From a virus (Duplodnaviria; Heunggongvirae; Uroviricota; Caudoviricetes), in IMG/VR virus record IMGVR_UViG_2609460221_000006, positions 1 through 8,325 of that record: a stretch of DNA of 8,325 nucleotides; one strand, 5' to 3'. Within the stretch, counting starts at the first letter, position 1. The number at the start of each line of letters is the position of its first letter. A program made the translations under genes and the position numbers. Of this stretch, positions 1-8,325 are shown piece by piece. A model generated the notes under the pieces. The model was not told the origin of the DNA and searched no databases. It was given only the letters and a program-made list of their open reading frames with translations.

Positions 1-907
1 GTGCATCATCTAACGGGATTTCATCGGTCATAATGGCAGATTGCGCTTCGCGTGATTGCTTAAGCCACCATTTAATGGTGTCCCGATCAATGACTCCGCC
101 AGCAGTTTCCAGATCGATAGTCTTACTAAATTCCGGTCCCATATCTCCGGTTTGCGGATCGAAAAATATTGCACCTATTGAGATAATCGGGGCATCTGGA
201 TTTTTTCCCATGGTTTCAAGGTCGATCATTAGATGGTCACACGTCCCGCTGGTGGATGTGCCTTTATGATGACCGTTCACCTTAACTGAGTGATCTGTCG
301 CCTCGCCAGTTTCACTATCGCTATCGTGATGCTGATTGCCGCCAGGGTTCTCCTTGTGTGGATGTTCAGTGCCTTCCATTTCCTCCGGATCATTTTCCTG
401 AACTTCAACCTGATTCTCTTCATTGAATGTTTCCTGGTATGTTGCGTCGCCCATCACCGCGCCACAATCAGGGCAGTTGCCGCCGCCGGTCTGACCGCAG
501 GCGGTGCAGATCTTTTCCGGTTCCTGTTGCACTACTGGTTCAGGTTGTTTCGTTTCTGGCTCGTTTTGTAACGCATTTGGGCTGTTTTGTTCCGCTTTCT
601 GGCCGTTCTGTTCCGTTTCTTGCTGGTTCTGGTTCACAGAATCGCGGGTTTCCATCCCCTTGACCCATTTCGGATCATTCGGGTCGCTAATCCCTGCAAC
701 AAATTCTCCGCGAGAGGCCGCAAGCAACTTATCGGCGTCAGGCTGGCTGATATTGGCTGCCTGCATAATTTTGTTTACTTCGTCAGCGGTAACTTTTACC
801 TGATTAACCGGATCTATCTGTGCCTGAGTATCCAGCGATTGCGTGTCCTGGCGATGTTCAGTTGTATTCGGCTCCATTGCTTCAGTCGTTGCCTGTTCAT
901 CTGCCAT
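1..907 (-). CDS. recE: RecE-family exonuclease VIII, downstream portion (partial, runs off the window; separated from the N-terminal ORF by a frameshift)
   Basis: Minus-strand frame open from ATG 907 to position 1, translating [30 protein letters not shown]...[30 protein letters not shown]...[16 protein letters not shown]... The [10 protein letters not shown] / [13 protein letters not shown] blocks match what I recall of the middle of E. coli RecE. The same frame is open upstream across the stop of the 936-2144 ORF. Confidence 0.6.
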
Positions 908-935
908 TGCGTCAGACGGTTGTGATTTTTCCTCA

Positions 936-2144
936 TTAATTTTTTTCTTCTTCTGTTTCGCGTTCAGCAGCCAGTTCGCGGTTAACTTCTTCCAGGATAT
1001 CTTTTTCCGGTGTATGTCGTGCAGCAGCGAGAGTTTCCTCGGTAGGGTTCTCGTGATCAGTTTCCGTCAAATAGGCGTTGATATACCCCTGAAGGCGTCC
1101 CGGGTAGTGATAAAATTCAGGGTGTGCGCTTCGGATAAGTGCAAAAATAGCGGCGCGGGAATAATCCAGGATACCCGGGATTGCGCGAAGTGCTGCGGAC
1201 CATTCTTTGAACGGACTTTCTTTCTTCCGGACGACTTCTTTTGCGCGACGATAAACGCTGCCCGGAATTTCATAAATATTAAAATCCATCGGAAGTGTGG
1301 CCGCTGCAATCTCCACATCCAGCGTATCGAAGGTGTGTACTAAATTCGGATTGCGATCGGTTTTGTTCCCTCCACCGGCATTAGCACCGGAAGCCGTGCG
1401 GGTGATGCGTGAAACACGATTTCCTTTCATCCACTCTTTTGTCAGCAGACCGCGATCGGTGTAGTCAGCGCCCAGGTATGCTTCGAAAAAAGCAGTCATC
1501 AGTCCCAGGTCTGAATTACCAGGATTAGGGAAAACTTTGTCCGTGTCACGAACCAGTTTGTGGAGATCGCGAATTTCCAGCGGTTCGAGTTGCGCTGCTT
1601 TATTTGAGATGGCCAGCGCGGTAACGGCGGGAAGTTTTTCATCCTGTGCGTTATGTAATGTGCGCAGTTCGTCCCGCGAAACGTGTGTGATCGGTTTTTC
1701 GCTGCCGTGCTGTGCCAGCCATCGAACAGGCAGAATCTGACCTGAAACCGGCAGGAGCATGTTCTCCTCAATCTCAGCCATGTCTTCGCCGTTGACGTTG
1801 GTATTGTCAGTGCTGGCTGGTTTATCCTGAACAGAGGGCGAGGGCGCGATAAGTACCATTGTGATACCATCTTCACCGCCCTTTTCGTATCGGTTGCAGA
1901 ATTCGGTATCAAACACGCCTTCCGGAGGAAGGTCATTCACAACGGGTAAATGGACGCGAACAGGTTTTTTAAAATCCTCTTTGTCAAATCCGGCATCGTC
2001 CATTGCGACAACACCGCGTGATATTGCAACCGATAATTTTTTTGCTGTGCGCCAGTAAAAACCGCCTTTAATTCCAAGACGTTTTCTGATTTTGTCATTT
2101 TTGGCTTCGTAATATAGTGCAATTTCTTCTTTATCAGTGCTCAT
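936..2144 (-). CDS. recE: RecE-family exonuclease VIII, N-terminal 402 aa (ends at TAA 936-938, probably prematurely)
   Basis: 402-aa ORF with blocks [111 protein letters not shown], recalled as the RecE N-terminal region. GAGG Shine-Dalgarno 8 nt upstream of ATG 2144. Confidence 0.8.
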
Positions 2145-2221
2145 TGATAAACCTCATTACAGATTTAAGGGTGAACAAATCCCTGCCATTGCTGGCATAT
2201 AAAAATGAAACCGGATATTAA

Positions 2222-2425
2222 TTACGGTGCTGTTTTAAGCCCCGCCGGGATTTCGTTATTGTCCATGTGAATAACTTTATCGACCGGATAACAGTTGCCG
2301 GGAATTTTCTGTTCCGCTGCGGCAGCCATGCATTCTTTCATTGAGTTGTACATGCCGGTGATTGCATCAAGCGACTCACCAGTATTGAGATGTACAGTCA
2401 GAATGAGTACGAATAATGTGTTCAT
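2222..2425 (-). CDS. Small hydrophobic protein, 67 aa, YdfD-like by position (tentative)
   Basis: ATG at 2425 overlaps the dicB stop (ATGA coupling); GGAGA Shine-Dalgarno upstream. N-terminal hydrophobic segment MNTLFVLILTVHL. Its position directly after dicB corresponds to ydfD in the Qin dicB operon; sequence identity to YdfD is not verified. Confidence 0.5.
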   Translation of the reverse strand: MNTLFVLILTVHLNTGESLDAITGMYNSMKECMAAAAEQKIPGNCYPVDKVIHMDNNEIPAGLKTAP

Positions 2426-2610
2426 CGCCACTCTCCGAAAATACCGAGTTTAAGAAGGGCAATTCTGGAGAGTATGGAATTGTCATTCAGCAGGTAGGGT
2501 TCATATTTTCTCATATTGATTGCATCCTCGGTGAAATCCCTGTTACTGAGCAGAACACCAATATTAAAGCACCCGTCAGACGTATTAACGTTTGGTAGTG
2601 ACGTTTCCAT
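2422..2610 (-). CDS. dicB: Cell-division inhibitor DicB homologue, 62 aa
   Basis: Translation METSLPNVNTSDGCFNIGVLLSNRDFTEDAINMRKYEPYLL... matches the recalled DicB signature (LPNVNTSEGCFEIGV...FTEDAINKRK) at the same 62-aa length. GAGGA Shine-Dalgarno 7 nt upstream of ATG 2610; lies just downstream of DicF as in Qin. The ORF track's longer 97-aa version (to 2715) has no support for its N-terminal extension. Confidence 0.8.
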   Translation of the reverse strand: METSLPNVNTSDGCFNIGVLLSNRDFTEDAINMRKYEPYLLNDNSILSRIALLKLGIFGEWR

Positions 2611-2779
2611 TATCGCGTCCTCAACAATGAATTTTGTGATGCGGTGCCTGGTGCCTCCAGGTGACGTTAACCAGTTAACAATTAACGCCGGATACAGAGA
2701 ATCCACCCATAACACTGTTTTTGGTTTTAACTGTTCCGCGTGCGCTCAGCCGCATTCACCACATCACAAAATTCACTTT

Positions 2780-2822
2780 AAAAAGGGCGGCAGAGCAGTC
2801 ACGGAGTAAAACTGATACCGCC
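2780..2822 (-). terminator. Intrinsic terminator hairpin forming the 3' end of DicF
   Basis: Minus strand GGCGGTATCAG...CTGCTCTGCCGCC stem-loop followed by a run of 5 U (plus-strand A 2780-2784). Probably leaky, since dicB lies downstream in the same operon. Confidence 0.6.
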
Positions 2823-2837
2823 AAAAGTCACCAGAAA
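2785..2837 (-). ncRNA. dicF: DicF small RNA (Hfq-dependent ftsZ-targeting sRNA processed from the dicB operon transcript)
   Basis: Minus-strand sequence TTTCTGGTGACTTTTGGCGGTATCAGTTTTACTCCGTGACTGCTCTGCCGCCC followed by TTTTT, matching the 53-nt DicF as I recall it apart from one possible substitution. Ends in a GGCGG...CCGCC hairpin plus U-tract. The 5' end is processed, so it is approximate. Confidence 0.85.
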
Positions 2838-3172
2838 ATTGATAACAGAGGGCGTTGCAGCGGAGTTGTCACTTAAGCGTATGGTCAACCTGACAACCCG
2901 GTGTCCTCAACGGGGGAAGGAATAACCCCGCCATACTTACCGCCGCGCCATTTCGCGGATTGCCACAACCGGAAGCGCACGGTCGACGAAAATTTAACGA
3001 CAGGCTATCTATGAACCAGCTACCTCGCCGTGCGCTTTCGCGTTATGGTCTGACTTTTCAGGGAAATATCCTTTCAGTAAACTGTCAGTGCCGGATGCTC
3101 ACCCGTGTCCGGCGCACGCACTCCACCTCACCCGTGGAGAACTCCTTAATCACCAACCCTCAGGAGGGTGAA

Positions 3173-3448
3173 ATGTCGACTGAAAATGATGAAATCATTA
3201 ACTCCCTGATACGCCAGATTAATAATTTTGATAAAGCATTGCAACATGCTGCGGCGCGTAGTGATATAACTCTTTTAGCAATTTCATTTCTTGCATCTGT
3301 TATGGATAAAAATGAAGTCGTACGACAGAGTCTTGTTGATTATATCGACTCGCTTCAACCCGGCACTTTCAATCATGAGAGCTTCAATCATGAGAAAGAG
3401 CATGTTAAGTCTGTAATTAATTCTCTTATTTTGAATCAAAAGAATTAA
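3173..3448 (+). CDS. Hypothetical protein, 91 aa, in an AT-rich island (unknown function)
   Basis: Strong Shine-Dalgarno CAGGAGGGTGAA directly before ATG 3173. The in-frame upstream part of the ORF-track call (2960-3172) is GC-rich with no RBS and is rejected. Base composition drops sharply at 3173. Predicted mildly acidic and helical, with an FNHES-FNHE tandem repeat; no motif I recognise. Confidence 0.6.
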   Translation: MSTENDEIINSLIRQINNFDKALQHAAARSDITLLAISFLASVMDKNEVVRQSLVDYIDSLQPGTFNHESFNHEKEHVKSVINSLILNQKN

Positions 3449-3746
3449 TGCTTTTTGTTGCAAAGTAATTTTCAAGGGGTTCTATTCGAATCCCTTTCTT
3501 TTTCATTAACAAGCCAAACCCCTTATCAATGATGTCCATTAGATCCAGGAAGTATTTTTCATGTAAATCCTGGTTATCAGAGAGCTGCTTCTCTTCGTAC
3601 AGCCCGATAAAGGCTCGGCGTACGTTACCGGATATATTGTCGATGGTTTCTTTTTCTACGGTACTCAGGTCAAGAGTCGCCAGTTGAGAGCGAACCACAT
3701 TCGATGCCATTTCCTGGAATGGTACTGGTAAATCTTTAAATTCCAT
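3426..3746 (-). CDS. Hypothetical protein, 106 aa, in the AT-rich island (unknown function)
   Basis: ATG 3746 is preceded by GAGGT at good spacing. An alternative ATG at 3758 overlaps the upstream gene's stop (TGATG) and gives 110 aa. Co-oriented with the dicB operon, convergent with 3173-3448 and overlapping its 3' end by 23 bp. Acidic, helical, no recognisable catalytic motif. Confidence 0.6.
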   Translation of the reverse strand: MEFKDLPVPFQEMASNVVRSQLATLDLSTVEKETIDNISGNVRRAFIGLYEEKQLSDNQDLHEKYFLDLMDIIDKGFGLLMKKKGIRIEPLENYFATKSINSFDSK

Positions 3747-3757
3747 CGTCAACCTCA

Positions 3758-3910
3758 TCAGTCAGTGTTTCTGGTTAACCAGCGACGCGCGCCAGCTTCA
3801 GTTTTAAACGTTTTGCTTCTGGTATATGTCATCGCGGTAAACGTGCCGTCCTGGTTGGGAAACACGCCGCATACCAGAGATTCGTTGTTGCCAAGCTCGA
3901 TAGTATCCAT
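3758..3910 (-). CDS. Small protein, 50 aa, YdfA-like (DUF1391-like, tentative); first gene of the leftward operon
   Basis: ATG 3910 has a GAGGT Shine-Dalgarno 5 nt upstream. The longest ORF starts at 3991 (77 aa) but with a weaker RBS. Product MDTIELGNNESLVCGVFPNQDGTFTAMTYTRSKTFKTEAGARRWL resembles, from memory, the ~51-aa YdfA that heads the Qin dicB operon. Confidence 0.5.
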   Translation of the reverse strand: MDTIELGNNESLVCGVFPNQDGTFTAMTYTRSKTFKTEAGARRWLTRNTD

Positions 3911-4091
3911 GCTGACCTCATTTCCCCTTAACGCCGGGGTAGCGGAACAAAAACCTGCTGCATAGTTATTAAAGTTGAACCCTGCCGTCATGTTCTTACG
4001 CCTCGGGCTGGCTACTTAACCCCTGACCACTGCCGGGTAACTCGAAGTATTGCCTGGCGTTCTGTGGGGCGGGGTGGGTTGATGAATGAAC

Positions 4092-4131
4092 AATACCACT
4101 ACTATTTAATTATGTAAATAGCAGTGCTATT
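4092..4131. promoter_or_regulatory. Leftward (PL-like) operator region: two copies of a 16-bp AAATAG-N4-G(C/G)TATT site in opposite orientations
   Basis: 4116-4131 is AAATAGCAGTGCTATT on the plus strand; 4092-4107 reads AAATAGTAGTGGTATT on the minus strand. Together they form a 30-bp near-palindrome (4097-4126). The same motif occurs twice in the repressor/cro intergenic region. Lies upstream of the leftward operon, with TTTACA / TATTGT-like hexamers nearby on the minus strand. Confidence 0.45.
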
Positions 4132-4142
4132 ATCGTGGCAAG

Positions 4143-4164
4143 AAAAAAAACCACCCGAAGGTGG
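4143..4164 (-). terminator. Rho-independent terminator ending the paaR2-paaA2-parE2 operon
   Basis: Minus strand CCACC-TTCG-GGTGG hairpin immediately followed by 8 U (plus-strand A 4143-4150), 17 nt downstream of the parE stop. Confidence 0.7.
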
Positions 4165-4180
4165 TTGTTGACAGGAAGGA

Positions 4181-4471
4181 TTAACAGGTTTTGTTTGGAT
4201 ACTGTCTTCGTGAGTGAACTACATTTACGATCTCGATGTTAGATGCTGTTACTCGGTAAAGTATTATGTAGTTAGGATGAGTCACTATCTCACGAAGACT
4301 TGGAACTCTTTCGCTCGGTGGGTACAGATAAGGGTGTTCAGTAAGTGACAAAACTGATGTTTCAATGCGTATTTTTAGTCTACGTGCAGCGGGAGGGTTT
4401 TCCTTAGCAATATAGGCTACGATCTGACGTAAATCATCACGTGCAGAAGGTAGCCATAAAATGGGCAGCAT
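4181..4471 (-). CDS. parE2: ParE/RelE-family type II toxin, 96 aa (ParE2-like)
   Basis: Translation MLPILWLPSARDDLRQIVAYIAKENPPAARRL...REIVTHPNYIILYRV...IEIVNVVHSRR shows the ParE/RelE pattern. Start overlaps the stop of the upstream antitoxin ORF, a typical toxin-antitoxin arrangement. Confidence 0.85.
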   Translation of the reverse strand: MLPILWLPSARDDLRQIVAYIAKENPPAARRLKIRIETSVLSLTEHPYLYPPSERVPSLREIVTHPNYIILYRVTASNIEIVNVVHSRRQYPNKTC

Positions 4472-4662
4472 TACTCACTCCTGTTCGTTGCAGCTAATTG
4501 AGCAATAAGGTTTTCCATTTCAGCCATTACTTCGTCATGTGGAATTGCAGGACGGGGATCTGAGAGGCTTGCTGCCACTTTGGTTCGCAACCATTCGTTA
4601 TAGCTGTTTTCTTGTTCGACTGTTTCAAATTCAGAAATTATCGGGGAAAGGGCTGTACTCAT
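4471..4662 (-). CDS. paaA2: Small antitoxin, 63 aa (PaaA2-like), partner of ParE2
   Basis: 63-aa acidic ORF immediately upstream of, and coupled to, the ParE gene. GAGGAGG Shine-Dalgarno 7 nt before ATG 4662. Size and context fit the PaaA2 antitoxin of the paaR2-paaA2-parE2 module described in E. coli O157:H7 prophages; the name is by synteny and recall. Confidence 0.7.
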   Translation of the reverse strand: MSTALSPIISEFETVEQENSYNEWLRTKVAASLSDPRPAIPHDEVMAEMENLIAQLAATNRSE

Positions 4663-4679
4663 GTTTTTACCTCCTCAGA

Positions 4680-5181
4680 TTAGGCGCGACGACCCTTTTG
4701 CGCAGCTAGCCATCGCGCAACGATTTCTTCAATTGATTCTTTTTTCTCCTTCATTTCCTTAAGCATTTTCTCTTTATCTTCTTTGGGGAAAGCCCTGAAC
4801 GTCTGGAGCAAATCCCGCTCCATGGGGTCTATATTAAACGGAAGTTCGTTTTCCGATTGTTCCATATCTGCAGATATAGTGACAACATTGTCCTCCCCAG
4901 ATTCTTGGGGATACATCCTTACAATTTGTAACAACTCGGCCATATCTGGTCTGATTGACTCGGGAGGAACTTGCAGCAACCCTGCGAACTTGATAACAGC
5001 CTCAAGATTTAAAGGTGTCTGACCATTTAGATAATGGCTTACAGCTCCCTGTGTCGAAAATCCCAGAATTTCTGCCGCACGCTCTTGGGTTAACCCTAGT
5101 TGAATTTTTTTTCGCCGTCCAGATTTCTTTCAGTCTCTGGGCGGCTTGCAGGTCGATCTCTGACAGGGATTTTCTTTTCAT
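4680..5181 (-). pseudogene. paaR2: Lambda cI-like HTH repressor (PaaR2-like), reading frame broken in an A8 run
   Basis: ATG 5181 with GAAGG Shine-Dalgarno gives MKRKSLSEIDLQAAQRLKEIWTAKK, then the frame is lost in the A8 run (plus-strand T 5105-5112). The -1 frame continues (KK)IQLGLTQERAAEILGFSTQGAVSHYLNGQTPLNLEAVIKFAGLLQVPPESIRPDM... to TAA 4680. The joined N-terminus closely resembles the lambda CI N-terminal domain ([27 protein letters not shown]...). The intact-frame tail is the 4680-4979 ORF in the track. Confidence 0.75.
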
Positions 5182-5288
5182 ACCTTCAATTCTAATAAGA
5201 TTATTAATCTCTTTGAAATAGTGATGCTATTTACTTTTAAAAATAACAATGCTATTAATGATCGTGATGACATCACATGAGGTGAACA
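5182..5288. promoter_or_regulatory. Divergent promoter/operator region between the cI-like and cro-like genes (PRM/PR analogue)
   Basis: Two direct copies of the 16-bp motif, AAATAGTGATGCTATT (5216-5231) and AAATAACAATGCTATT (5241-5256), 25 bp centre to centre. A 13-bp perfect palindrome GTGATGACATCAC (5264-5276) and TAATAA-GA-TTATTA (5193-5206). Candidate rightward promoter TTTACT-N17-TATTAA. GAGGTG Shine-Dalgarno before ATG 5289. Confidence 0.55.
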
Positions 5289-5564
5289 ATGAATCTTGGA
5301 GAATATTTGCATCATTCCGGTATAACTCAGAAGCATTTTGCTGAAATTGTTGGGGTAACCCAAGGGATGGTAAGCCATGTCATTACCGGACGGGCGAAAC
5401 TTACGGGGAAAAAAATTTTACGCTGGTGCGAAGCAACAGGCTGGATAGTAACTCCGCACGAGATTGATGGCAGTACTTATCCCAACCCAACCGACGGCTT
5501 ACCTGTCGAGTATCAGGCTAACACACAACCAGAGGCGGGGGTGATTCATGAAAATCAAGCATGA
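5289..5564 (+). CDS. ydaS: Cro-like HTH DNA-binding protein, 91 aa (YdaS-like)
   Basis: HTH segment ITQKHFAEIVGVTQGMVSHVITG. Divergent from the cI-like gene across an operator-rich spacer; Shine-Dalgarno GAGGTG at 5279-5284. Confidence 0.8.
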   Translation: MNLGEYLHHSGITQKHFAEIVGVTQGMVSHVITGRAKLTGKKILRWCEATGWIVTPHEIDGSTYPNPTDGLPVEYQANTQPEAGVIHENQA

Positions 5565-5584
5565 ACACATCCGCATGGCAATGA

Positions 5585-5974
5585 ATGCCTGGGCGCATCC
5601 GGACGGCGAAAAAAGTACCGGCTGCGAAAATTACCAAAGCGTATTTCGAGCTGGGAATGACGTTCCCGGAACTGTATGACGACAGCCATCCGGAAGCCCT
5701 GGCCCGTAATACCCAGAAAATTTTCCGTTGGCTGGATAAAGACACCCCTGATGCTGTTGAAAAAATGCAGGCTCTGTTACCGGCGATCGAAAAGGCGATG
5801 CCGCCTTTGCTGGTGGCCCGTATGCGCAGCCACAGTTCTGAATATTACCGTGAGATCGTCGAACGGAGGGATCGGCTGGTGAAGGATGTCGATGATTTTG
5901 TTGCGTCAGCGGTTGTTTTGTATGACCAGATGAATCGCGGCGGCCCGGCAGGGAATGCTGTGGTGATGCACTAA
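5585..5974 (+). CDS. ydaT: YdaT-like (CII-analogue) protein; longest intact frame shown, native start probably ATG 5548 with a frameshift in an A6 run
   Basis: The 129-aa ORF from ATG 5585 has no Shine-Dalgarno and begins right after an in-frame TGA. ATG 5548 has a strong GAGGCGGGGG RBS and overlaps the cro-like stop; it encodes MKIKHEHIRMAMNAWAHPDGEK and then leaves the frame at the A6 run 5609-5614. One A fewer would give a ~140-aa product, the size I recall for YdaT. The gene name is by synteny with Rac ydaS-ydaT. Confidence 0.6.
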   Translation: MPGRIRTAKKVPAAKITKAYFELGMTFPELYDDSHPEALARNTQKIFRWLDKDTPDAVEKMQALLPAIEKAMPPLLVARMRSHSSEYYREIVERRDRLVKDVDDFVASAVVLYDQMNRGGPAGNAVVMH

Positions 5975-5996
5975 AAGCACGGTGTTCGGGGGTTTT

Positions 5997-6959
5997 ATGA
6001 GCAGCAAGCTTCATGGTCTTGTCTGGGAAGGGTGCGCCTTCACCGGCATGATCTTATCCAGGGTGGCGGTTATGGCCCGTCTTGCAGACTACAGCAATGA
6101 CGAGGGCGTGTCATGGCCTGCCATTGAAACTATCCGGCGTCAGATCGGTGCAAGAAGTGAATCCACAGTGAAATCGGCTATTGCAGAACTGGCGAAAGAG
6201 GGCTGGCTGACGAAGGAAGAGCGTAAGGTCGGTGGGCGTAATGTAAGCAATATCTATCGGCTTAATGTGGAAAAACTCGAAGCAGCTGCGGCGGCGGCGC
6301 GTGAGTCATATAAACCGAAAAGAAAAATTAGCCCGGCAAAAAATGACCCGTTAACAGTTGACCCGTCAAATATTGCCCCCTCAACGGTTGACCCGTCAAA
6401 TTTTGATGGATCAACTGTTGATAAAAAACTGCCGATTAGGGGGGCGATGATTGACCCCGATCCGTCAGTATTAAAACCTGATCCGTCAGATAAAAGATCT
6501 TCTTGTCCGGACGCTTCGCAACCGGACCCGCAGACGGCTGAACAGGATTTTTTAACCCGACACCCTGACGCGGTTGTGTTCAGTGCGAAAAAACGCCAGT
6601 GGGGAAGTCAGGAAGATTTGGTGTGCGCACAGTGGATCTGGGGACGAATCGTGAGTCTTTACGAGCAGGCGGCCAGCTATGATGGCGAGATCACTAGACC
6701 GAAAGAACCCAACTGGACAGCATGGGCCAATGACGTTCGCACAATGCGGATGCTGGATGGCAGAACTCACAGACAAATTTGTGAAATGTTTGGGCGTCTC
6801 CAGCGGGATTCGTTCTGGGTAAAAAACATCATGAGTCCGGCAAAACTCCGGGAAAAATGGGATGAACTGGTTATCCGCCTGGGGCGTTCGCCTGCGCAGC
6901 GTTGCGTGAATCACATTTCTGAACCGGACACTGAAATACCGCCGGGATTCAGGGGGTGA
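5997..6959 (+). CDS. Replication initiator, lambda O analogue (YdaU-like), with origin iterons inside the gene
   Basis: 321-aa ORF from ATG 5997 (GGGGG upstream); GTG 5982 is an alternative start. N-terminal winged-helix-like region ...VSWPAIETIRRQIGARSESTVKSAIAELAKEGWL. The central coding region carries tandem DNA repeats that encode the repeated TVDPSN / DPS peptides. Sits between the cII-like gene and the DnaC-like loader. Confidence 0.7.
   Translation: MSSKLHGLVWEGCAFTGMILSRVAVMARLADYSNDEGVSWPAIETIRRQIGARSESTVKSAIAELAKEGWLTKEERKVGGRNVSNIYRLNVEKLEAAAAAARESYKPKRKISPAKNDPLTVDPSNIAPSTVDPSNFDGSTVDKKLPIRGAMIDPDPSVLKPDPSDKRSSCPDASQPDPQTAEQDFLTRHPDAVVFSAKKRQWGSQEDLVCAQWIWGRIVSLYEQAASYDGEITRPKEPNWTAWANDVRTMRMLDGRTHRQICEMFGRLQRDSFWVKNIMSPAKLREKWDELVIRLGRSPAQRCVNHISEPDTEIPPGFRG
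6356..6489. repeat. Iteron cluster: putative replication origin within the O-like gene
   Basis: AGTTGACCCGTCAAAT at 6356-6371 and GGTTGACCCGTCAAAT at 6386-6401 (each containing the inverted pair TTGAC/GTCAA), TGTTGATAAAAAA at 6417-6429, and GATCCGTCAG at 6458-6467 and 6480-6489. Iterons inside the initiator gene are the lambda ori arrangement. Confidence 0.55.
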
Positions 6960-6965
6960 CGTGTC

Positions 6966-7712
6966 ATGAAAAACATTGCGGCAGTTGGGGTTCTTGAACG
7001 TATTCGCAGACTTGCACCACAGGGGTCGGTTCCACCGTACCGGACGGTGGAGGAGTGGCGGGAATGGCAACTTGCTGAAGGACGAAAACGCAGCGAGGAG
7101 ATTAACCGCCAGAATCGCCAGTTGCGGGTGGAAAAAATCCTGAATCGTTCGGGCATCCAGCCTCTGCACAGCAAATGCTCGTTTGCAAATTATCAGGTGC
7201 AGAACGACGGGCAAAAATACGCGCTGAGCCAGGCCAAATCCATAGCTGACGAACTGATGACCGGGTGCACGAATTTTGTGTTCAGCGGTAAAACCGGCAC
7301 CGGGAAAAATCACCTTGCAGCGGCGATGGGCAACCGGCTGATGGTGAAGGGGCGCAGCGTGATTATCGTCACCGTGTCTGACGTCATGAGCGTGTTGCAT
7401 GACAGCTACGACAACGGCAAATCCGGGGAAAAATTTTTACAGGAGCTTTGCGGGGTTGATTTGCTGGTCCTGGATGAAATAGGCGTTCAGCGGGAGACGA
7501 AAAACGAGCAGGTGGTATTGCACCAGATAATTGATCGCCGGACAGCATCACTGTGCAGTGTCGGGATGTTAACAAACCTGAATCATGCCGCAATGAGTAC
7601 GCTTCTTGGTGAGAGGATTATGGACCGCATGACCATGAACGGTGGTCGATGGGTGACGTTTAACTGGGATAGCTGGCGTCCAAATGTCAGCAATATGAGG
7701 GTTGTGAAGTAA
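6966..7712 (+). CDS. ydaV: DnaC-like helicase loader / IstB-like AAA+ ATPase, 248 aa (YdaV-like)
   Basis: Walker A FSGKTGTGKNHLAAAMG and Walker B DLLVLDEIG. AGGGGG Shine-Dalgarno before ATG 6966, which follows the O-like stop by 6 nt. Confidence 0.85.
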   Translation: MKNIAAVGVLERIRRLAPQGSVPPYRTVEEWREWQLAEGRKRSEEINRQNRQLRVEKILNRSGIQPLHSKCSFANYQVQNDGQKYALSQAKSIADELMTGCTNFVFSGKTGTGKNHLAAAMGNRLMVKGRSVIIVTVSDVMSVLHDSYDNGKSGEKFLQELCGVDLLVLDEIGVQRETKNEQVVLHQIIDRRTASLCSVGMLTNLNHAAMSTLLGERIMDRMTMNGGRWVTFNWDSWRPNVSNMRVVK

Positions 7713-7733
7713 TTTTGTCCGGAGGAAATTTTA

Positions 7734-8325
7734 ATGGAAACCGTATCTGACGCACTGAAAGCACTGAAAAAAGCCTCTTCACATGTGGTGGCAGCTCGCC
7801 TTGGAATCAGTCGTGAAGAGGCTGTCAACGAGCTGTGGGAACTCAAAAGAAAAGGCGTCGTTGATAAAACTGGTCACACCTGGTTTCTGGCTGGCGAAGG
7901 TGAATCCCGGGTAACCGAAGAGCGGCCAGTAAAATCTGAAGCACAGGATATGCTGACCGGGGAGGTCGAACAAAAAGTTACCGCAGACATGATGATTGAG
8001 TTTATCGGTCAGGATGGGGCTAAAACGTGTGAGGAACTGGCGGGTAAGTTCAGTGTCAGTACTCGCAAGGTTGCTTCCACGCTGGCGGTGGTAACCGCAA
8101 CGGGGCGGCTGGCACGCGTTAATCAGAACGGTAAATTTCGTTACTGCATGCCGGGCGATAATTTACCAGCAGAGCCGAAAGCCGCGCTGGTAACGGAAAG
8201 TGATGGTAAGGCCTTTCCTCAGCCAGCAGGTGCTGCGTTACCAGTCCGGGAAGCCGCAACACAGGAAGAAATTAAAACAGAAACTGTGGCGGACATTGTG
8301 CAGCCGTTGCCATCGTTTACCGAAA
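7734..8325 (+). CDS. Hypothetical prophage protein, partial (runs off the right edge), with two winged-helix-like segments
   Basis: GGAGGA Shine-Dalgarno 7 nt before ATG 7734; frame open to the window end (197 codons), so it is absent from the ORF track. Translation METVSDALKALKKASSHVVAARLGISREEAVNELWELKRKGVVDK...CEELAGKFSVSTRKVASTLAVVTATGRLARV. Corresponds in position to the gene after ydaV in Rac. Confidence 0.6.
   Translation, partial: METVSDALKALKKASSHVVAARLGISREEAVNELWELKRKGVVDKTGHTWFLAGEGESRVTEERPVKSEAQDMLTGEVEQKVTADMMIEFIGQDGAKTCEELAGKFSVSTRKVASTLAVVTATGRLARVNQNGKFRYCMPGDNLPAEPKAALVTESDGKAFPQPAGAALPVREAATQEEIKTETVADIVQPLPSFTE

Follow-up and report, generated by a model that had tools for sequence, protein, structure and literature searches.

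A conserved pseudoknotted RNA domain in the untranslated leader of the DicF precursor

The dicF locus and its early operon

The DNA analyzed here, called the window, is a stretch of 8,325 nucleotides (positions 1 to 8,325 of IMG/VR virus record IMGVR_UViG_2609460221_000006). The distribution of functional elements around the region 2838-3172 is as follows:

5289-5564, plus strand: Cro-like gene
4680-5181, minus strand: HTH repressor gene, frameshifted
4181-4662, minus strand: relB/relE-type toxin-antitoxin pair, between the repressor gene and the early-left promoter
4149-4166, minus strand: terminator 3' of the relBE-type pair
4090-4118, minus strand: promoter-like site
3758-3991, minus strand: DUF1391 gene
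3426-3758, minus strand: gene for a 110-aa protein
3173-3448, plus strand: cargo gene for a 91-aa protein
2785-2836, minus strand: DicF small RNA (seed and intrinsic terminator), full-length match to Rfam RF00039 (75.8 bits, E = 8e-16)
2425-2610, minus strand: dicB
near dicB, minus strand: DUF1482 gene

These elements make up a Qin- or Rac-like lambdoid early region. From their order, the region 2838-3172 is therefore placed within the leftward early operon and directly upstream of DicF, as a preliminary description made from the letters of the DNA had proposed and as the Rfam DicF match also indicates. DicF, the 3' module of the unit, lies just outside the region, and an AT-rich stretch extends beyond it (GC 0.33-0.39 at 3200-3599).

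The window at 2838-3158 shows 97.5% identity over 321 nt with the ydfC-dicF spacer of K-12 MG1655, and the 335-base region is matched in 4326 of the 5426 complete E. coli genomes. The upstream neighbour is the plus-strand cargo gene in the window and ydfC in K-12. The block is thus the untranslated ydfC-dicF region of K-12, with its published RNase III and RNase E processing. In K-12, northern blots and primer extension showed that two DicF species arise from the operon transcript, an internal promoter being absent; the 190-nt species depends on RNase III and the 53-nt species on RNase E (Ragunathan et al. 2023, bioRxiv 10.1101/2023.04.14.536235, which cites Faubladier et al. 1990). These published cuts support the idea, raised in the preliminary description, that the region is a DicF precursor or processing region, which was already known. 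The K-12 Qin precursor of 190 nt has the same sequence, at the same place 5' of DicF and in the same operon. In the transcript of the leftward early operon, the stretch 2838-3172 forms the untranslated, modular 5' part of the DicF precursor.

Several peculiarities of the locus lie outside this region. The HTH repressor is split after ...WTAKKN, the gene being intact (166 aa) in strain WP4-W18-ESBL-09; the split marks a pseudogene or else a homopolymer run misread in sequencing. The gap between DicF and dicB is filled by a stretch (2578-2787, minus strand) that matches Rfam STnc100 below threshold (38.4 bits for a gathering score of 47). Similar sub-threshold matches also precede dicB in K-12 and kil in pPE4, and in phage P1 they occur farther along the ban operon. 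Downstream of the DUF1482 gene, a 402-aa minus-strand gene (801-2150) is not homologous to its counterpart in the otherwise near-identical strain L002, which carries a 2.5-kb exonuclease gene at that place; the comparison of the two sequences indicates a mosaic junction near 2150. Finally, Aeromonas phage AP1 (254 kb; MT713136.1, 249906-249967) contains DicF and about 10 nt upstream of it at 98.4% identity, without the leader.

A conserved folded domain on the transcript strand

The preliminary description had singled out three inverted repeats in the region, all of which are present at the positions that it gave:

3090-3095 with 3108-3113: GCCGGA/TCCGGC
3121-3126 with 3134-3139: CTCCAC/GTGGAG
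3156-3161 with 3164-3169: ACCCTC/GAGGGT

The corresponding hairpins exist but are weakly supported: inverted repeats of six bases are expected by chance, and compensatory changes were absent from the variants inspected by reading. The same description considered the region to be rich in hairpins. Folding of both strands gave a different picture for each: the transcript strand taken alone does not exceed chance (z = -1.30, 11 of 100 shuffles folding equally well), and a better fold than expected was obtained for the plus strand (z = -3.59). Comparative alignment, by contrast with these single-sequence folds, did reveal covarying stems, located at 2854-3048 and distinct from the three hairpins named at the outset. 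They include a conserved domain with the following elements:

2854-2969, minus strand: conserved folded RNA domain of about 115 nt, five helices and a pseudoknot (covariation, RNAalifold)
2962-2969 with 2854-2861, minus strand: helix P1
2943-2958, minus strand: helix P2, a hairpin
2939-2942 with 2899-2902, minus strand: helix P2.1
2931-2936 with 2879-2884, minus strand: pseudoknot GUAUGG/CCAUAC, the second arm being in the P4 loop
2911-2930, minus strand: helix P3, a hairpin
2891-2898 with 2864-2871, minus strand: helix P4

This fold was first seen by eye, on comparing phage P1 with the window, as compensatory changes in three helices. Homologues were gathered from GTDB genomes and IMG/VR using patterns in the most conserved loop, together with BLAST matches. 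In a MAFFT alignment of 80 sequences that was not fitted to the fold (A2), 95.0% of the cells are paired, compared to 35-56% when the partners are slid by 1-3 columns, and both sides have changed in 14 of the 33 pairs. With 84 sequences fitted to a covariance model (R1) and helix P2.1 added (A3), the corresponding values are 96.4% and 33-57%, with compensatory changes in 17 of 36 pairs. For both alignments none of 500 shuffles did as well, a control that overstates significance because the sequences are closely related. RNAalifold independently recovers P3, P4 and P2.1. Folding of the single sequence for minimum free energy (MFE) recovers P4 and the long hairpin described below (2963-3048) only, without the covarying fold.

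Individual helices illustrate the compensation. In P4, GGGUUGUCA/UGACAACCC is replaced by GAGCUACCA/UGGUAGCUC, GGAUCACCA/UGGUGAUCC or GGGUAACCA/UGGUUACCC. In P3, the stems CGGGG, CUGGG, CCAGGUG, CGAGG, CUGGUG and GCGGGG each have their own complement. The pseudoknot changes from GUAUGG/CCAUAC to GCAUGG/CCAUGC in phage P1 and, separately, in a K-12-type copy, and U:G intermediates occur. Loop and junction bases of the domain are near-invariant; for the P4 loop this is partly by construction, since the homologues were mostly fetched through P4-loop patterns, and the distant members found by BLAST also keep this loop. A further pairing, which would join the pyrimidine-rich loop of P3 to the purine-rich junction on its 3' side, was set aside: it fits several classes (L047, L192 and L037) and fails in phage P1 and L109.

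Known RNA and coding functions were also considered. Rfam 15 gave no match at E <= 1 for 2838-3172, and a search of all Rfam families with the window and nine related loci returned only DicF and the sub-threshold STnc100, both outside the region. Neither a tRNA nor a tmRNA-like gene was found. A protein-coding gene or pseudogene on the minus strand was discarded. The earlier statement that no ORF there exceeds about 20 codons is roughly right, the longest having 31 (with a GTG start), 29, 23 and 21 codons; the sole ATG ORF, of 21 codons, is frameshifted in K-12-type copies by a CCCC/CCCCC indel located in P3. A small ORF inside the domain (AUG-GCG-CGG-CGG-UAA) is not conserved in phage P1.

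The plus strand requires separate consideration, as the region could serve the 91-aa cargo gene as its promoter and 5' leader; the preliminary description had advanced a leader structure gating translation of that gene. The one element that concerns this gene is the last fifteen or so nucleotides (3156-3169):

3156-3172, plus strand: hairpin at the ribosome-binding site (RBS) (ACCCUCAGGAGGGU, inverted repeat I12) and spacer before the ATG at 3173

This RBS hairpin is common to several cargo genes and is not part of the dicF-sense unit. The same RBS, or its variant CCUCAAUGGAGG, stands before several unrelated ORFs in other prophages; the hairpin also occurs in a compensated form, and the RBS is absent from K-12. 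More generally, the stretch 3140-3175 (plus strand, ...ACCAACCCTCAGGAGGGTGAA-ATG, with a variant CCTCAATGGAGGATAAAATG) heads at least five different ORFs across prophages, that of the window included, and looks like a hot spot for cargo genes antisense to the early operon. For nearly the whole region the gating idea fails, since 2838-3158 is kept in K-12 and other copies that lack a plus-strand gene, and since the G:U pairs of the covarying helices exist on the minus-strand RNA only. At two positions of helix P1 the commonest pairs are UG (43 of 83 sequences) and GU (52 of 83), which would become A:C mismatches on the plus strand; this dominance of G:U shows that the fold belongs to the dicF-sense RNA. 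Among the promoter-like sites listed by a scan of 2300-4300, none on the plus strand falls within 2838-3172. Despite the favourable z value of the plus strand, a leader role on that strand is therefore very improbable for the region as a whole.

The annotation also bears on this point. A plus-strand frame that escaped the preliminary description is open from 2960 to 3448, and PGAP calls a CDS of 145 aa from the equivalent of ATG 3011 (3011-3448 in the window; 3174-3611 in L002, where the block is identical). From the sequence we judge this call to be over-extended and the real product to have 91 aa: ATG 3173 is preceded by a strong Shine-Dalgarno sequence (AGGAGG), at least four other, unrelated ORFs are headed by the same RBS, and K-12 keeps the block, with ydfC adjoining, without a plus-strand gene. 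The extension itself has no RBS.

Taken on the transcript strand, the results clearly indicate that the leader contains a conserved folded domain.

Processing of the precursor and a competing helix

The elements that flank the domain on the transcript are the following:

3121-3139 and 3088-3117, minus strand: leader hairpins, as named in the preliminary description
3050-3088, minus strand: leader hairpin CUGAC...GUCAG
2963-3048, minus strand: long irregular hairpin, probable RNase III substrate (inverted repeat I1, 13 nt, 92% complementary)
2837-2853, minus strand: unpaired AU-rich linker, GCCCUCUGUUAUCAAU, followed by U2837, the first base of the 53-nt DicF

The three hairpins at 3050-3139 are conserved in the K-12-type class of upstream sequences and replaced in the other classes. 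The hairpin at 2963-3048 is present in MFE folds and is supported by an alignment of its two strands (A4): 93.8% of its pairs are kept over 45 variants, compared to 27-40% when slid, and four pairs show double changes, the apical part being free to vary.

Counting 190 nt back from the terminator places the predicted 5' end left by RNase III at about 2969-2974, that is, at the foot of this hairpin and at the start of helix P1. RNase III would thus cut directly 5' of the domain of about 115 nt, so that the domain plus DicF matches the published 190-nt DicF to within about 5 nt. Comparison with the start of the Rfam DicF model suggests that the RNase E cut that makes the 5' end of the 53-nt DicF falls at the 3' edge of the linker. 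In the present copy the hairpin and the matching distance are observed, and the RNase III and RNase E sites are inferred from K-12. The order along the RNA would then be the RNase III hairpin (2963-3048), the pseudoknotted domain, the AU-rich linker, and DicF with its terminator.

The hairpin and the domain share a strand. The 3' strand of the hairpin ends with GUUGUGG, which is also the 5' arm of helix P1. This heptamer has two partners: the upstream CA(U/C)AAC at the base of the RNase III hairpin, and the downstream ...CAAC strand of helix P1. The two helices are mutually exclusive, and the predicted RNase III cut falls between them. RNAfold places the 5' arm of helix P1 in an upstream helix in 20 of 24 upstream classes. 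In L177 both the upstream and the downstream partners change together with the GUUGUGG arm, as does the downstream partner in L195, and in the cdtI class an unrelated long hairpin again captures the 5' arm of helix P1.

These observations suggest a possible sequence of events. In the nascent transcript, GUUGUGG would be held in the base of the RNase III hairpin. Removal of the upstream strand by RNase III would then free it to close helix P1 with the downstream CAAC-rich strand. The outcome would be a compact, 5'-monophosphorylated RNA in which the linker, where RNase E would cut, is the only open segment. The published 53-nt DicF is the product that RNase E releases from the 190-nt RNA.

A comparable arrangement is the leader of the lambda N gene, an RNase III-sensitive structure in the early-left operon whose cleavage remodels the downstream RNA and controls translation of N. 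In the dicF leader, unlike that of N, the remodelled part is a non-coding domain without a following ORF.

A rearrangement at the same place was observed in four deletion variants of alignment A2 (L028, L014, L065 and L247), in which ACGCGAAAG, from the 5' strand of the RNase III hairpin, is fused to CCGCGAAAUGG, from P2. The fusion removes the 3' strand of the RNase III hairpin and the 5' arm of helix P1. The likeness of the two sequences is sufficient for them to have recombined.

Distribution, exchangeable 3' modules and possible functions

To delimit the domain among phages, the term "no canonical DicF" is used here for records in which BLAST gives no match to the dicF part of the query and Rfam gives no DicF hit. 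The window at about 2846-2969 has matches of 77-89% in such phages: cdtI, Stx2c phages, Salmonella phage F1055, a record named "Actinobacillus phage", and P1, P7, RCS47 and SJ46. Matches are also present in 511 plasmid records, mostly partial and of the length seen in phage P1. BLAST from a divergent member returned the same set (about 61 phage records). Scans with the short patterns ACCAGGTTGACCAT and RCAGGTTGACCATNCGC for distant members gave about 200 loci, only 2 of which are real. The domain occupies one place per phage record (65 places in 65 records), and every inspected copy lies on the early-left operon, or on the Pban transcript in phage P1.

In phage P1, the homologous core is the "dicF-like region" (NC_005856, 68791-68892; 76.8% identity), with compensatory changes in P3, P4 and the pseudoknot and a terminator downstream. 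It differs from the window in having a different 3' module and neither the RNase III hairpin nor helix P1. This copy lies about 45 nt after the C1-controlled Pban promoter and before a strong terminator, tRNA genes and ban. In cdtI, a promoter-like site beside cI is found about 280 nt upstream of the domain, and an sRNA-like terminator downstream of it. No protein gene is common to the phage P1 and lambdoid contexts.

What follows the domain is variable. A hairpin with a U-run, resembling an intrinsic terminator, is found within 90 nt after it in 158 of 169 distinct copies, and the seed and terminator that follow belong to at least seven module classes unrelated in sequence, one of which is a sub-threshold DicF (30.3 bits). 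The divergent copies L177 and L195 have no adjacent sRNA or terminator. The domain is more conserved than the attached sRNA modules, DicF included. It would be the constant 5' part of a family of early phage RNAs with an exchangeable 3' sRNA, and may set the maturation and lifetime of the sRNA attached to it.

We tentatively favour, a little short of an even chance, the view that the domain serves as a constant 5' module, defining the 190-nt RNA released by RNase III and controlling RNase E maturation and stability of the exchangeable sRNA. The evidence that leads to it is the identity with the K-12 spacer, the published RNase III and RNase E cuts, the position of the 190-nt end, the covariation, the competing helix and the terminator modules. 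Release of sRNAs by RNase E from the 3' regions of mRNAs or from the interior of operons has been reviewed (PMC9438474), and DicF resembles these in that a functional 3' part, seed and terminator, is freed from a longer transcript. It is unlike them in that the discarded 5' part is more conserved, pseudoknotted and joined to many sRNA modules. Three observations argue against this maturation function: a five-helix pseudoknot with near-invariant loops exceeds what RNase E processing usually needs, the phage P1 copy, on the primary transcript of Pban, keeps the core without the RNase III hairpin or helix P1, and L177 and L195 carry the domain without an sRNA or terminator next to it.

The position of the domain in front of terminators suggests the main alternative function, which we regard as rather unlikely: a cis-acting processive antiterminator RNA that binds the transcribing host RNA polymerase, as put does in HK022. 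It would let polymerase pass the sRNA terminator, and Rho on the long untranslated leader, so that the early genes (dicB/kil, recombination genes, xis/int; ban in P1) are expressed without an N protein. HK022 put RNA, of about 70 nt, consists of two stem-loops with a conserved 5' duplex AGACG/CGUCU, and it binds the zinc-binding domain of the polymerase beta' subunit and suppresses termination and pausing (PMC9378689). Like putL and putR, the domain is a cis-encoded folded RNA in an N-less lambdoid early operon, upstream of terminators and with no evident phage protein partner; by analogy, its context is compatible with put-like suppression of termination. The copies lie downstream of repressor-controlled early promoters (Pban with its C1 operator, the cdtI promoter beside cI), and terminators would have to be passed: the one that follows 158 of the 169 copies, in phage P1 a strong one (GCCCAUCUUCGGGUGGGC and six U) that separates the domain from the tRNA genes and ban within one operon, and another strong one 350 nt downstream in L177. 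The viable phage mEp460_ev081 has dicB, an exonuclease gene, xis and int beyond the DicF terminator. Judged by the genes, no lambda-type nut/N system was seen: the first pL genes are DUF1391 and one of unknown PHROG, N is unannotated in mEp460_ev081, and Pfam and PHROG gave no N-like match for the promoter-proximal proteins. As no conserved neighbour protein gene is common to the phage P1 and lambdoid contexts, the partners of such an RNA would be host factors.

The comparison with put also sets limits. Homology was rejected: putL was located in HK022, and the domain differs from it in architecture (about 115 nt, five helices and a pseudoknot, compared to about 70 nt and two stem-loops) and has no sequence similarity to it. 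Model R1 has no match in the HK022 early region (L008); the silence of Rfam is uninformative here, as it has no put model. The domain is present in a single copy per phage, in the left operon only, whereas HK022 has both putL and putR, and its distance from the promoter varies from about 45 to about 950 nt. Efficient read-through would lower the amount of sRNA made by termination, and leaky terminators alone could account for downstream expression. The absence of N, moreover, is a matter of annotation and of profile searches of few proteins. It seems to us doubtful that N-less lambdoid phages and P1 possess, in this domain, a second class of processive antiterminator RNA encoded by phages and unrelated in structure to put.

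The conservation of the domain beyond that of its sRNA modules, its near-invariant loop and junction bases and the L177 and L195 copies without an adjacent sRNA would also fit an autonomous early phage non-coding RNA that acts in trans on a host protein, as decoy or ligand, with the sRNA merely co-transcribed. The RNase III and RNase E cuts would leave a discrete fragment of about 130 nt, and the 5' domain could persist after RNase E cleavage, perhaps as the extra sRNA suggested in the preliminary description. Such a fragment is unmentioned in the accessible part of bioRxiv 10.1101/2023.04.14.536235, no partner is identifiable and Rfam holds no relative, and we consider this function improbable.

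A riboswitch-like aptamer that senses a ligand or signal, and so controls whether transcription stops at the DicF terminator or whether RNase E gains access, deserves hardly any credence. The succession of a conserved pseudoknotted domain and an intrinsic terminator is the classical riboswitch layout, and helix P1 has an alternative partner. When the module classes were compared by eye, however, no antiterminator pairing of the domain with the variable terminators proved to be conserved. The spacer, in which the sRNA seed lies, differs among copies, and the operons are early phage operons rather than metabolic genes. One candidate pairing, of the 3' arm of helix P1 (CCGCU/CCGCC) with GGCGG of the terminator, was dropped because it works in some module classes only, failing in cdtI, Salmonella and phage P1.

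The locus is already known as the DicF precursor, and the anatomy of the domain appears to be undescribed. The 2023 processing paper (bioRxiv 10.1101/2023.04.14.536235) mentions neither secondary structure nor antitermination or read-through, DicF goes unmentioned in a 2026 survey of prophage sRNAs, and searches of the openly accessible literature yielded no description of the domain, the pseudoknot, their spread in P1 and lambdoid phages, the varied sRNA modules or the competing helix. DicF, found in most E. coli, is one of the first bacterial sRNAs to become known, and the 5' part of its 190-nt form is treated as a spacer in the accessible literature. The domain provides instead a defined, mutable object, in which sRNA maturation, read-through of terminators in N-less operons and binding of host factors can be tested. 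It would justify a new RNA family model and the correction of CDS calls placed over the leader; its interest would be higher if the antitermination function proved true.

Some records call for comment. Three GTDB metagenome-assembled genomes attributed to Bacillota, Veillonella parvula and Collinsella (L016, L017 and L020) contain the exact 23-nt P4-loop pattern on short contigs, and are probably mis-binned Escherichia DNA. The "Actinobacillus phage" record (PP818812.1) carries genes for DicA, YdaT, Kil and exonuclease VIII, as E. coli lambdoid prophages typically do. In this same record (L006, about 2360-2520, minus strand) the sRNA/terminator module that follows the domain is tandemly duplicated.
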